From an uncultured Clostridia bacterium (GTDB lineage: Bacteria > Bacillota > Clostridia > Christensenellales > CAG-917), in assembly GCA_944372795.1 (NCBI GenBank), contig CALWAF010000001.1, positions 64,390 through 128,389 on the forward strand: 64,000 nucleotides of DNA, read 5' to 3'. A program made the translations under genes and the position numbers. The notes beneath the pieces were generated by a model, which did not search any database, was not told the origin of the DNA, and saw only the letters and a list, made by a program, of their open reading frames with translations. Positions 28,889 through 30,709 of this stretch are shown one piece after another. Every line of letters starts with the position of its first letter. Position 1 is the stretch's first letter.

Positions 28889-29389
28889 TCAGTCGCGGTA
28901 CTTGGCCAGGATGCCGGGAATGTCCGCGGGGGTGAGCTTGCCGTAGACGTCGTCGCCTATGGTCATGACGGGTGCAAGCCCGCAGCAGCCGATACAGCGC
29001 GTGGAGCACAGCGAGAACTTCCCGTCGGAAGTGGTCGCGCCGTCCGAAAGCCCCAGCTCCGCCGCCAGCTTGTTGAACACGTCGCCAGAGCCTTTTACGT
29101 AGCACGCCGTGCCGAGGCACACCGCGACCGCGTGTTCACCCTTGGGATTGAGAGAAAACTGGCTGTAAAAAGTCGCCACACCGAAGACCTCTTCCAAAGA
29201 CGCGCCCAACTCCTCGGCGACTATCTTCTGGACCTCGATGGGAAGATAACCGTAAATTTCCTGCGCTGTCTGCAGGGCGGGCATCATGCTGCCCGGCATA
29301 TCCTTGATGGTGCGGAGCTCCGCACGCAGTTTAGCCTCTTGCGCGGCGGTGCCTTTGAACGCCACGGTCGTCAATTTGATCTGTGCCAT
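28889..29389 (-). CDS. hydC: NuoE-like [2Fe-2S] subunit of the hydrogenase complex (HydC / HndA-like)
   Basis: 166 aa with the Cys pattern VCLGTACYVKG ... STRCIGCCGLAP, typical of the NuoE family. First gene of the cluster. Confidence 0.9.
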   Translation of the reverse strand: MAQIKLTTVAFKGTAAQEAKLRAELRTIKDMPGSMMPALQTAQEIYGYLPIEVQKIVAEELGASLEEVFGVATFYSQFSLNPKGEHAVAVCLGTACYVKGSGDVFNKLAAELGLSDGATTSDGKFSLCSTRCIGCCGLAPVMTIGDDVYGKLTPADIPGILAKYRD

Positions 29390-29436: not shown

Positions 29437-29465
29437 ATTGTAGCATAACCCCGAATAAATTGCAA
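29437..29465 (-). promoter_or_regulatory. sigma-A promoter of the hydrogenase cluster (TTGCAA-17-TACAAT on minus strand)
   Basis: -35 at 29465..29460 and -10 at 29442..29437, about 45 nt upstream of the hydC ATG. Confidence 0.55.
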
Positions 29466-29537
29466 TGACAAAATCTTACGATTAAACGCGCGCGTGCAAG
29501 ACGCGCGCTATGTGCACGCGCGTCATATCTTTTTGGG

Positions 29538-29818
29538 ATGCCGGAGCGGAATAATACGAACCTGCCTCAGAGCAATTCTTTTCGGCGCTTTTGCACAGCC
29601 GAAACTTGCGGGTATGTATACTATTGCCTGCGTTCCGCCAGAGCAAAATCATCCGAAAATCTCTTGCTCTGAGGTGCGAGCAGTTCCGCGCCAGCCGATT
29701 TTTGGCTGAGCAAGGAAGTCGGCGCCGCTAATACCTGCCCGTATTAGCAAGGCGAATGACGCAGTTCAGGCGGAAATCGGCGACGCTGAACCCGGTTCGT
29801 ATTATTCCGCTCCGGCAT
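29538..29818. repeat. 281-bp segment bounded by perfect 25-bp inverted repeats (inverton or MITE candidate)
   Basis: ATGCCGGAGCGGAATAATACGAACC (29538..29562) is the exact reverse complement of 29794..29818. The 231-bp interior has at least five internal hairpins. The right arm contains the last 5 codons and the stop of nadE. Confidence 0.9.
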
Positions 29819-30551
29819 AGCGCAGAGGCATACGGCGTTTGTGCGCCGTCCTCTCCTCCATGCCCGCGATGCGGCGGCGCATACTCTCCGAGAGTTCCCC
29901 TCCCCTGATGTACGCCGTGATGTCGCCGTAGGTCACGCCCAACTCCGTTTCGTCCGTCTGCTCGGGGTAAAGCCCTGCGGACGGCGCCTTTTCGATGATG
30001 CTTGCGGGCGCGTCCAAAAAGCGGAGCATCTCGTAGATCTCGGGAACGGTGAGGTCGGCGATGGGGTCGAAGTCGTATGCCCCGTCCCCCCACTTGGTGA
30101 AGTAGCCCACCGTGTATTCGCAGAGGTTGCCCGTGCCCGCGACGAGATAGCCCTTCGCCTGACCGAGAGCGTAAAGCGTCGTCATGCGAAGACGGGGATT
30201 GATGTTGATGAGGGCGCTTCTAGCCGCACCGTTCTCCTCCCCTTCCGCAAGCCCGTCGCCCAGCGCCGCAACGAGGCTTTCCTTGACGGCGGTAAGATCC
30301 ACCTCCGTCTGCTCTATGCCGAAGTGCCTGCCCGCGGCGAGAGCGTCGTCGCGGTCGGAGCCGTAGTTGGCGGAGGACTGACAGGGCATGATGACGCCCA
30401 GCACGTTCGGAGTCGCCATGCGGCAGAGAGCGCCCACCAGAGTGCAGTCCTTCCCGCCGCTGTTGCCGTAGATGATGCCCCTCGCGCCCGAGCTTTCCAG
30501 CACCTCTTTTATCCACTTCACGCGATTTTCGACATTTGTGCTAATATCCAT
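29802..30551 (-). CDS. nadE: ammonia-dependent NAD+ synthetase
   Basis: PP-loop motif GNSGGKDCTL and a C-terminal region typical of short NadE. ATG 30551 was chosen because GGAGG lies 7 nt upstream. The track start at 30590 is less likely. Confidence 0.85.
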   Translation of the reverse strand: MDISTNVENRVKWIKEVLESSGARGIIYGNSGGKDCTLVGALCRMATPNVLGVIMPCQSSANYGSDRDDALAAGRHFGIEQTEVDLTAVKESLVAALGDGLAEGEENGAARSALININPRLRMTTLYALGQAKGYLVAGTGNLCEYTVGYFTKWGDGAYDFDPIADLTVPEIYEMLRFLDAPASIIEKAPSAGLYPEQTDETELGVTYGDITAYIRGGELSESMRRRIAGMEERTAHKRRMPLRYAGAE

Positions 30552-30709
30552 ATCCATGCCTCCGTTCTGCGGCTGTATTTCACCAAGCAATTATATTCCG
30601 TCCTTTAACGTTTTTCAAGCCAATTTTAAGCAAAATGGGGGTTGTATTTGCAAAAAAGTTGGGGTATAATGGTCTCGATCACAAAAAAAACCTCAAAAAG
30701 GAGTAAATT

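Follow-up and report, generated by a model that had tools for sequence, protein, structure and literature searches.

A 281-bp inverted-repeat element at the 3' end of nadE: probably a new MITE family in gut Clostridia of the Candidatus Limadaptatus type

The Correia/NEMIS (CREE) elements of Neisseria are repeats of roughly 100-200 bp with arms of ~26 bp and a 2-bp sequence, the dinucleotide TA, at both ends, and we know of no cognate transposase in their host. Promoter, RNase III, inversion, and strain-difference properties have been described for these elements (PMC10969869). In this study, we analyzed a 281-bp segment bounded by terminal inverted repeats (TIRs) that lies across the 3' end of nadE, upstream of a hydrogenase-type operon, in a 64,000-nucleotide stretch (the window) of the genome of an uncultured Clostridia bacterium (assembly GCA_944372795.1, contig CALWAF010000001.1). 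An earlier reading of the window, made from the sequence alone (the sequence-only reading), had offered three models for this segment: an invertible promoter switch, a MITE (miniature inverted-repeat transposable element) bounded by TIRs, and an RNA of ~280 nt closed by a 25-bp stem. Our results indicate that the segment is very probably a nonautonomous mobile element, belonging to a new family of MITEs in gut Clostridia of the Candidatus Limadaptatus type, that has recently inserted in nadE.

The Correia elements are the closest known system. The Clostridia element differs from them in its dinucleotide, which is AT and not TA, in its length of 281 bp with two nested 110-nt hairpins, and in the strict covariation of its arms; it has neither strong outward promoters nor an IHF site in evidence, and it shows no sequence similarity to the Correia consensus. 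Neither the TA duplication nor the Neisseria consensus was found, and the element is confined to a few Clostridia metagenome-assembled genomes (MAGs). Like the Correia elements, it is small, is bounded by arms of similar length with a 2-bp repeat at either end, lacks a transposase that could be assigned to it, has no open reading frame (ORF) of its own, belongs to a repeat with tens to hundreds of copies, clips or disrupts coding ends, brings long hairpins into transcripts, and has insertions that vary among strains, as described for Neisseria (PMC10969869).

Other described systems share part of this architecture. MITEs of the IS630/Tc1-mariner type, such as the pneumococcal RUP, are likewise small, bounded by TIRs, and flanked by a 2-bp duplication at a palindromic dinucleotide. 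A TA duplication of the IS630 kind was rejected here, as the filled nadE junction reads GGGA-TGCC and not GGGA-TA. The serine-recombinase transposons Tn4451 and Tn5397 (with the recombinases TnpX and TndX) and IS607-type elements are autonomous and use a nonpalindromic 2-bp core (GA or GG). In these systems, as in the element described here, an empty target has a single core, each end has one once insertion has taken place, and the joint is palindromic.

Dispersed copies and empty target sites

In the assembly from which the window comes (1.6 Mb in 52 contigs), seven 281-bp copies are complete (97.9-100% identity). There are also a 324-bp variant, a copy with an internal deletion, and four pieces at contig ends, the last because assemblies break in repeats. 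All of the copies open with ATGCC and close with GGCAT, and their flanks are unrelated. Multiple identical copies elsewhere had been named in the sequence-only reading as one of two joint signs of a plain MITE, the other being a lack of reads in the inverted orientation, and the full copies of the assembly provide the first of these signs. Across the genus, the element was found in 8 of 15 genomes, compared with none of 26 genomes sampled from other genera of the family and order. The seven other genus genomes that carry it have up to ~30 copies each, and two relatives have as many as 60-66 matches per genome to the arm alone. Of all GTDB species representatives, only eight assemblies contain an invariant internal 29-mer, including those of Candidatus Limadaptatus stercoripullorum, Ca. 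L. stercoravium, and Ca. Caccalectryoclostridium excrementigallinarum. We gathered 71 distinct full copies across the genus, 56 of them exactly 281 bp long and 8 of 324 bp. The flanks are unrelated at all 71; the ATGCC start and GGCAT end are kept in 66, with the remaining 5 off by one or two bases there; and the two arms differ by at most one mismatch over 25 nt in 59. Half elements and collapsed arms of 30-35 nt, which are decay products typical of MITEs, are also present. The collapsed forms (L063, L067, L068, L071, and L073, in genomes G008, G010, and G013; for example, ATGCCGGACCGGAATAATACGAACC followed by GGCAT) consist of a left arm fused to the last 5-11 nt of the right arm and may have arisen by deletion or be footprints that the element left.

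Conspecific strains provided the empty site. Conspecific metagenome contigs were retrieved from public assemblies by exact look-up of the HydC-like protein. In three of them the site is empty: nadE lies 133 nt from hydC, the flanks are 97-98.6% identical to those of the window, and the contigs read ...gggATagcgcag... or, over a longer span, ...catatctttttgggATagcgcagaggc..., which is the window sequence minus 279 bp. The dinucleotide AT is single in these alleles (...ctttttgggATagcgcag...; empty site GGG-AT-AGC). Six other conspecific contigs are filled, one with the whole element at 100% identity and five that break inside it. Three sister species have GGGATAGC or GGGATAT at the nadE site. 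A degenerate 21-mer scan of metagenomes for filled and empty junctions returned 14 matches, none of them from the nadE locus. A second, independent locus, the esterase-purE spacer of the G008 species, gave the same picture: the filled spacer measures 646 nt and the empty one 367 nt, so that they again differ by 279, and AT stands once in the empty form and at each end in the filled form. At this locus an older arm remnant provides the target AT as its two terminal bases (...CCGGTCCGGC-AT-ACCGC). An apparent target-site duplication of AT with a clean empty site is seen at two loci, as expected of a MITE, and the small size and the lack of a conserved ORF fit the same class: the ORFs in the element are only 44-71 amino acids long, span variable arm positions, and are broken by the 43-nt insertion of the 324-bp variant. 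The MITE model of the sequence-only reading is therefore upheld by a repeat that is multicopy, dispersed, polymorphic for presence or absence, cleanly missing from empty sites, and without an ORF. The insertion is 277 bp plus a second AT or, equally, 279 bp placed between A and T without duplication. Because strains of one species carry either the element or the untouched site, its entry into the 3' end of nadE is recent.

One contig with an "empty" second locus (L258:1719-2120) holds a chimeric remnant bearing variant bases of the full element of a neighboring strain (CTGTCTGGCAT, not CCGGTCCGGCAT). Such a sequence would be expected if the remnant had recombined with the right arm of the element and a copy had thereby been lost.

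The right arm overlaps the end of nadE, a geometry that would also arise by local duplication, with the left arm made as an inverted copy of the gene's 3' end at this locus only. That account, which the sequence-only reading had adopted for the left arm, has next to no chance of being correct: the arms and the interior stand at many unrelated loci, and a comparison with relatives' nadE 3' ends, which the same reading had proposed, yielded conspecific empty alleles and relatives whose nadE lacks the AGAE tail. The dispersed copies and the empty alleles refute the duplication, and the direction has to be reversed. The present end of nadE was taken from the element, and the native codons still lie outside it (Table 1).

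The same alleles bear on the possibility that the segment is an inverton, in which a site-specific recombinase would flip the 231-bp interior and turn an internal promoter toward or away from the hydrogenase-type operon. Multilocus invertons of the Mpi type in Bacteroides fragilis have similar inverted repeats around a segment of ~200 bp at several loci, as here. The perfect inverted repeats and the length of ~280 bp, typical of invertons, agree with such a switch; a weak promoter-like motif faces the operon; AT, if it were the recombination core, would be palindromic and would impose no fixed polarity between the arms; and the Correia elements, the closest analogue, are reported to invert (PMC10969869). 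However, only one orientation per locus was seen in the six filled contigs at nadE and in four assemblies at the second locus, so that none of these 10 assemblies holds an inverted allele. Unlike the segments of multilocus invertons, the whole segment is missing in some strains, and it stands at dozens of unrelated sites, some of them between convergent genes. The motif TTGCTC-17-TAGTAT, which the sequence-only reading had called promoter-like, is present on the minus strand, but it matches the consensus at 8 of 12 positions, falls below the threshold of our promoter scan, and is at best a weak promoter candidate. Its stated distance of 70 bp from the operon promoter holds for the left end of the element, which is 73 bp from the called promoter, but not for the motif itself, which is ~150 bp away. 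As had been noted, no recombinase gene is adjacent. The neighbors are the hydrogenase-type operon, an Fe-alcohol dehydrogenase, and a dihydroxyacetone kinase; there is no recombinase within several kilobases, and the distribution of serine recombinases elsewhere in the genus is not correlated with that of the element. An invertible switch is, on these grounds, very unlikely, although the element may invert rarely.

The MITE reading also agrees with the ages of the copies. Copies within the genome of the window are 98.2% alike, identity between genomes is 88-95%, and the nadE DNA of the same genomes is 70-80% identical. In Ca. Caccalectryoclostridium excrementigallinarum, whose copies are at 88-92%, the element is the sole part of the genome that aligns to that of the window. 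None of the 71 insertion sites is common to two genomes, and a comparison of orthologous insertions for opposite orientation between genomes accordingly had no case to offer. The copy identities, the unshared insertion sites, and the segregating alleles show that the element has been recently active in each lineage. It has probably been transferred between lineages or homogenized among copies. Exchange between copies is indicated by block variants, such as CAA/GGG in the hairpin 1 tip, that appear again and again across many lineages, and by the 324-bp variant in the genome of the window, which bears the arm type of that genome. The tip blocks GCCAATATG and GCGGGTATG (window 29609-29613; L255, L259, and L260, all from the esterase-purE spacer of the G008 species) vary between strains even at one single insertion site, and this variation together with their recurrence suggests gene conversion between copies.

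Insertion follows a base preference around the AT. Against a background of ~0.22-0.28 per base, position -1 is T at 49 and C at 15 of the 71 sites (64 together), position +1 is A at 39 and G at 23 (62 together), and position +3 is C at 47. Roughly, the target reads Y-AT-R followed by S and C and loosely resembles the abutted ends GGC-AT-GCC. Several copies lie in tandem and share an AT, or lie beside arm remnants, on the terminal AT of an older copy or remnant. Flanking genes show no corresponding rule. When a simple coding-potential gene call was applied to 32 copies, 24 had a called gene on both sides; these were convergent in 10 cases and divergent in 8, and among co-directional genes the element was antisense in 4 and sense in 2. 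The orientation of the element relative to its flanking genes is random. At 4 of the 32 copies an ORF enters the arm for 16-17 nt and ends at the arm TAA, as nadE does. Only one of the three frames meets this early stop, and for this reason such insertions are probably survivors of selection.

Co-varying arms and the search for a mobilizing enzyme

The two arms vary together. Arm positions 6-10 are variable, and yet the two arms agree within a copy in 60 of the 71 copies, with eight matched variants (AGACA, GGAGC, AGACC, GGACC, GAAGC, AGCCC, GGAAC, and GGATC). In an alignment of 57 sequences, six base pairs of the terminal helix have changes on both sides, and the measures of covariation lie above those of every slid control and of all or almost all of 500 shuffles. 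In the inner helices, which are conserved, changes are mostly one-sided, and most of these leave G-U pairs. A transposase that bound the ends one by one would not impose the co-varying pattern. The pattern suggests instead that the arms are under selection for pairing or are corrected against each other. The arms would pair at some stage, as a folded single strand or a cruciform; alternatively, one arm would be corrected against the other, for example by template switching, a process known as quasipalindrome correction from E. coli genetics.

A count of 398 G-U against 26 A-C cells in a plus-strand structure had seemed to single out one strand as the folding strand; the count was biased toward the strand on which the structure had been derived, and we withdrew that claim. 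Over 60 copies both strands fold alike: minimum free energies are -142.1 versus -141.7 kcal/mol, and the plus strand is the more stable one in 31 copies, a number that falls to 17 of 60 when DNA parameters are used.

We searched for the enzyme that moves the element and found several points that weigh against the MITE reading. No autonomous partner, that is, a longer element with the same TIRs and a transposase, was found in a TIR search that allowed up to 6-7 mismatches and covered the genome of the window and fetched regions of three good assemblies; the unpaired TIRs in these three well-assembled relatives belong to truncated copies, either half elements or collapsed arms of 30-35 nt. The transposase domains rve, DDE_3, DDE_Tnp_1, and DDE_Tnp_1_2 were sought in the 15 genus genomes and found in none, while control genomes gave hits; IS110, TnpB, IS256, ISL3, IS1595, IS66, and other families lay outside this search, and MAG binning can lose insertion sequence contigs. 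The lack of DDE_3 sets the element apart from the IS630/Tc1-mariner MITEs. No similar sequence was found in the viral, plasmid, and phage collections IMG/VR, PLSDB, and INPHARED. Serine recombinases are present and mostly large, but their pattern does not track the element across the genus. Covariation between arms is not expected for a classical DDE MITE. The AT could belong to the element and not be a duplication, as 279 bp placed between A and T gives an identical sequence. Finally, movement is deduced from the comparison of alleles and was not observed directly.

Two candidate enzymes were rejected. The first is a recombinase of 1,087 amino acids that has no element TIR nearby and whose recombinase part has homologues in genomes without the element. 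This ORF is 99-100% identical in three species whose genomes are rich in the element (L247:4059-7322 in G010, G008:C3:151652-154912, and G013:C1:29157-32417). Residues 1-383 are a large serine recombinase, and residues 383-1087 correspond to a gene for ~740 amino acids that is separate elsewhere; the ORF lies within a shared island that also carries a T2SSF gene and one for a type I methylase. The arrangement suggests an integrated element, recently transferred, with a recombinase that continues into a disrupted host gene.

The second candidate, a RAYT-like Y1 transposase, is bracketed by an unrelated palindrome of 107 nt. Among element-positive genomes, 7 of 8 have its gene, against 2 of 7 among those that are element-negative. 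In the genome of the window it is a single-copy gene (G000:C22:18560-19624; L227:1281-2345) for 257 amino acids that scores 73.7 bits with the NCBIfam model REP_Tyr_transpos (cutoff, 80) and has a weak C-terminal helix-turn-helix match (Pfam HTH_7, below cutoff). The near-perfect palindrome (TTGAACAA..GGGGACGGGC..) stands on both sides of the gene, has ~8 copies in that genome, and is arranged in the same way in relatives; gene and palindrome together look like a small REPIN-RAYT system in gut Clostridia. The 281-bp element resembles REPINs in being an intergenic, hairpin-forming repeat with compensated stems in a genome with a RAYT-like Y1 gene, but it shares no motif with the 107-nt palindrome, and REPINs are not known to leave a duplicated dinucleotide.

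A mechanism for the MITE reading can be outlined nevertheless. An enzyme supplied in trans would cut at AT with a 2-bp stagger and join the 25-33-bp ends or, equivalently, would exchange strands across a 2-bp AT core. The 2-bp AT, the palindromic joint, and the arms of 25-33 bp are compatible with a DDE enzyme with a 2-bp stagger and with core exchange by a serine recombinase alike. The mobilizing enzyme would be either missing from the assemblies, as MAG binning may have lost the partner, or a member of a family outside the search. Arms of 25-33 bp have the size of a half site of large serine recombinases, and such enzymes are present in the genus; in contrast to Tn4451 and Tn5397, no recombinase is linked to the element, and the element TIR is absent from the ends of the recombinase-bearing island that was examined. 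A mover of a non-DDE kind, either a recombinase acting across the AT core or an enzyme that acts on the folded hairpin or cruciform, is an unlikely but real prospect. If it were true, the excised form would carry a perfect palindrome of 50-66 bp (...CCGGC-AT-GCCGG...), the target would be a degenerate copy of that joint, and the arms would stay complementary by pairing or by copying from each other. The element would then be a nonautonomous "serine/hairpin MITE," and its lineage one that is packed with structured repeats yet has none of the four large DDE families searched.

The fold of the element and the altered end of nadE

The features of the locus are collected in Table 1. The perfect 25-bp inverted repeats described in the sequence-only reading were borne out by the sequence itself and by a shuffle test, in which the arm match was absent from 100 of 100 shuffles of the window; the complementarity of the arms reaches 33 nt at 91%. 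The internal hairpins named in the same reading were all located in the sequence: CCTCAGAGCAA/TTGCTCTGAGG, described as enclosing ~90 nt and found to enclose 88 nt, GCTAATAC/GTATTAGC, GTTCAG/CTGAAC, and TTTCGGC/GCCGAAA. Both strands of a 297-nt stretch fold far below shuffles (z = -9.1 and -9.3).

Table 1. Coordinates of the element and of neighboring features in the window
Feature	Position	Strand	Remarks
MITE-like element copy	29538..29818	none	281 bp counted with AT at both ends; net gain of 279 bp relative to the empty allele
Left terminal inverted repeat, ATGCCGGAGCGGAATAATACGAACC	29538..29562	+	25 nt perfect; extends to 29570 at 91%
Right terminal inverted repeat, exact reverse complement of ATGCCGGAGCGGAATAATACGAACC	29794..29818	-	Carries the nadE AGAE codons and TAA
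Left AT dinucleotide copy	29538..29539	none	Single AT in the empty site
Right AT dinucleotide copy	29817..29818	none	Basis: comparison with the empty allele and relatives
Hairpin module 1, ~110 nt	29565..29674		Outer stem CCTCAGAGCAA/TTGCTCTGAGG; tip is a small hairpin around TGTATAC
Hairpin module 2, ~110 nt	29683..29792		Contains GCTAATAC/GTATTAGC; the 43-nt extra hairpin of the 324-bp variant falls here
Weak promoter-like motif, TTGCTC-17-TAGTAT	29618..29646	-	8/12 positions; below scan threshold
nadE (NAD synthase)	29802..30590	-	Pfam NAD_synthase, E = 1e-55; C terminus ...RYPKKI* changed to ...RYAGAE* through the insertion
Orphaned native nadE end, codons PKKI and TGA stop	29523..29537	-	Native stop at 29523-29525; traceable in the reading frame
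GC-rich palindrome just past the native nadE stop	29486..29523	-	Probable native terminator (putative function); its distance to the coding end has grown by 279 bp
Promoter-like site of the hydrogenase-type operon, TTGCAA-17-TACAAT with TG	29437..29465	-	Called by the scan; outside the element and intact
First gene of the operon, thioredoxin-like 2Fe-2S protein, NuoE/HydC type	28889..29389	-	Heads the hydrogenase-type operon

The strong folding (z about -9) invites the view that the segment is a structured RNA gene of ~280 nt closed by a 25-bp stem, as the sequence-only reading had also proposed, or a cis-acting module such as a terminator, a stabilizer, or an RNase III target. The conserved inner helices, with one-sided changes that mostly leave G-U pairs, point the same way, and in a read-through transcript a perfect duplex of 25-33 bp would be a substrate for RNase III, as for the Correia elements (PMC10969869). 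However, in a search with Rfam 15 covariance models the element had no match even at E = 1, and only tRNAs were found in the window at gathering scores. Our scan calls no promoter or terminator in the element or at its ends, the element takes no preferred orientation to flanking genes, neither strand has the better fold over 60 copies, the covariation lies in the terminal arms and not in the inner helices, and the presence/absence polymorphism argues against an essential RNA. We consider an RNA function of this kind extremely unlikely and retain the mobile-element reading.

The insertion has left nadE with an end supplied by the right arm, which reads (T)AT GCC GGA GCG GAA TAA. The sequence-only reading had assigned the last five codons and the TAA to the arm; the stop and four full codons (AGAE) do come from it, and the Tyr codon receives only two bases. 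In empty alleles the nadE product has 249 amino acids and ends at the native stop, and in the predicted product of the filled allele the four last residues are swapped from PKKI to AGAE, with a new TAA within the arm. The effect of the insertion is probably close to neutral, since both alleles circulate. The native nadE stop and the GC-rich palindrome now lie beyond 281 nt of strongly pairing sequence. A read-through transcript would hold a perfect duplex of 25-33 bp that could be a substrate for RNase III, by analogy with Neisseria. The promoter-like site of the hydrogenase-type operon starts 73 bp from the left end of the element and is kept in relatives that lack the element.

Structured repeats in the genomes of the lineage

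The element shares its genomes with other repeats. Hairpin module 1 has ~12 stand-alone copies elsewhere at 70-89% identity (among them G000:C51:29-456, C1:26813-27165, C48:4778-4890, C24:16701-16811, C10:4806-5019, and C2:61604-61711), some of which form arrays with a spacing of ~150-158 nt. From copy to copy, the two sides of its tip hairpin change together (CCAATA/TATTGG versus CTAATA/TATTAG). The TIR element appears to be a composite, with module 1 either captured by it or used to build it. The 43-nt extra segment of the 324-bp variant (G000:C31:991-1048, with the hairpins GGGGTCCCC and TGAAAATC..GATTTTCA) is a repeat in itself, which also occurs singly and, at a contig end, in tandem with a period of ~45 nt (G000:C20:29344-29516 and C18:19134-19183). 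Comparison of the assembly with itself gave 757 repeat alignments of at least 350 bp (pairs counted in both directions) in a genome of 1.6 Mb, and noncoding repeat families of 600-1,000 bp are present in many copies. A solo arm-like sequence with 5 mismatches in 25 (G000:C1:140086-150000; L245:2086 onward) stands where the GC content drops from ~0.6 to 0.36-0.45. The low-GC island that begins there extends for at least 8 kb and contains minus-strand ORFs of 475 and 1,015 amino acids, with a large serine recombinase ~2 kb beyond the stretch examined.

The repeat forms a new family within an ordinary class of elements. Its presence accounts for the odd C terminus of nadE, and the same arm gives AGAE* or ARQE* tails on other genes. 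It accounts likewise for the 412-nt "structured" gap before the hydrogenase-type operon and for many contig breaks in the MAGs of this lineage. As a clean, datable presence/absence character, it is a strain marker for a common group of animal-gut Clostridia. The wider question is what moves this element and the other hairpin repeat families in such small genomes (1.3-1.8 Mb), a question that is sharpened by the AT rule, the self-targeting of copy ends, the co-varying arms, and the absence of every DDE family that was searched.

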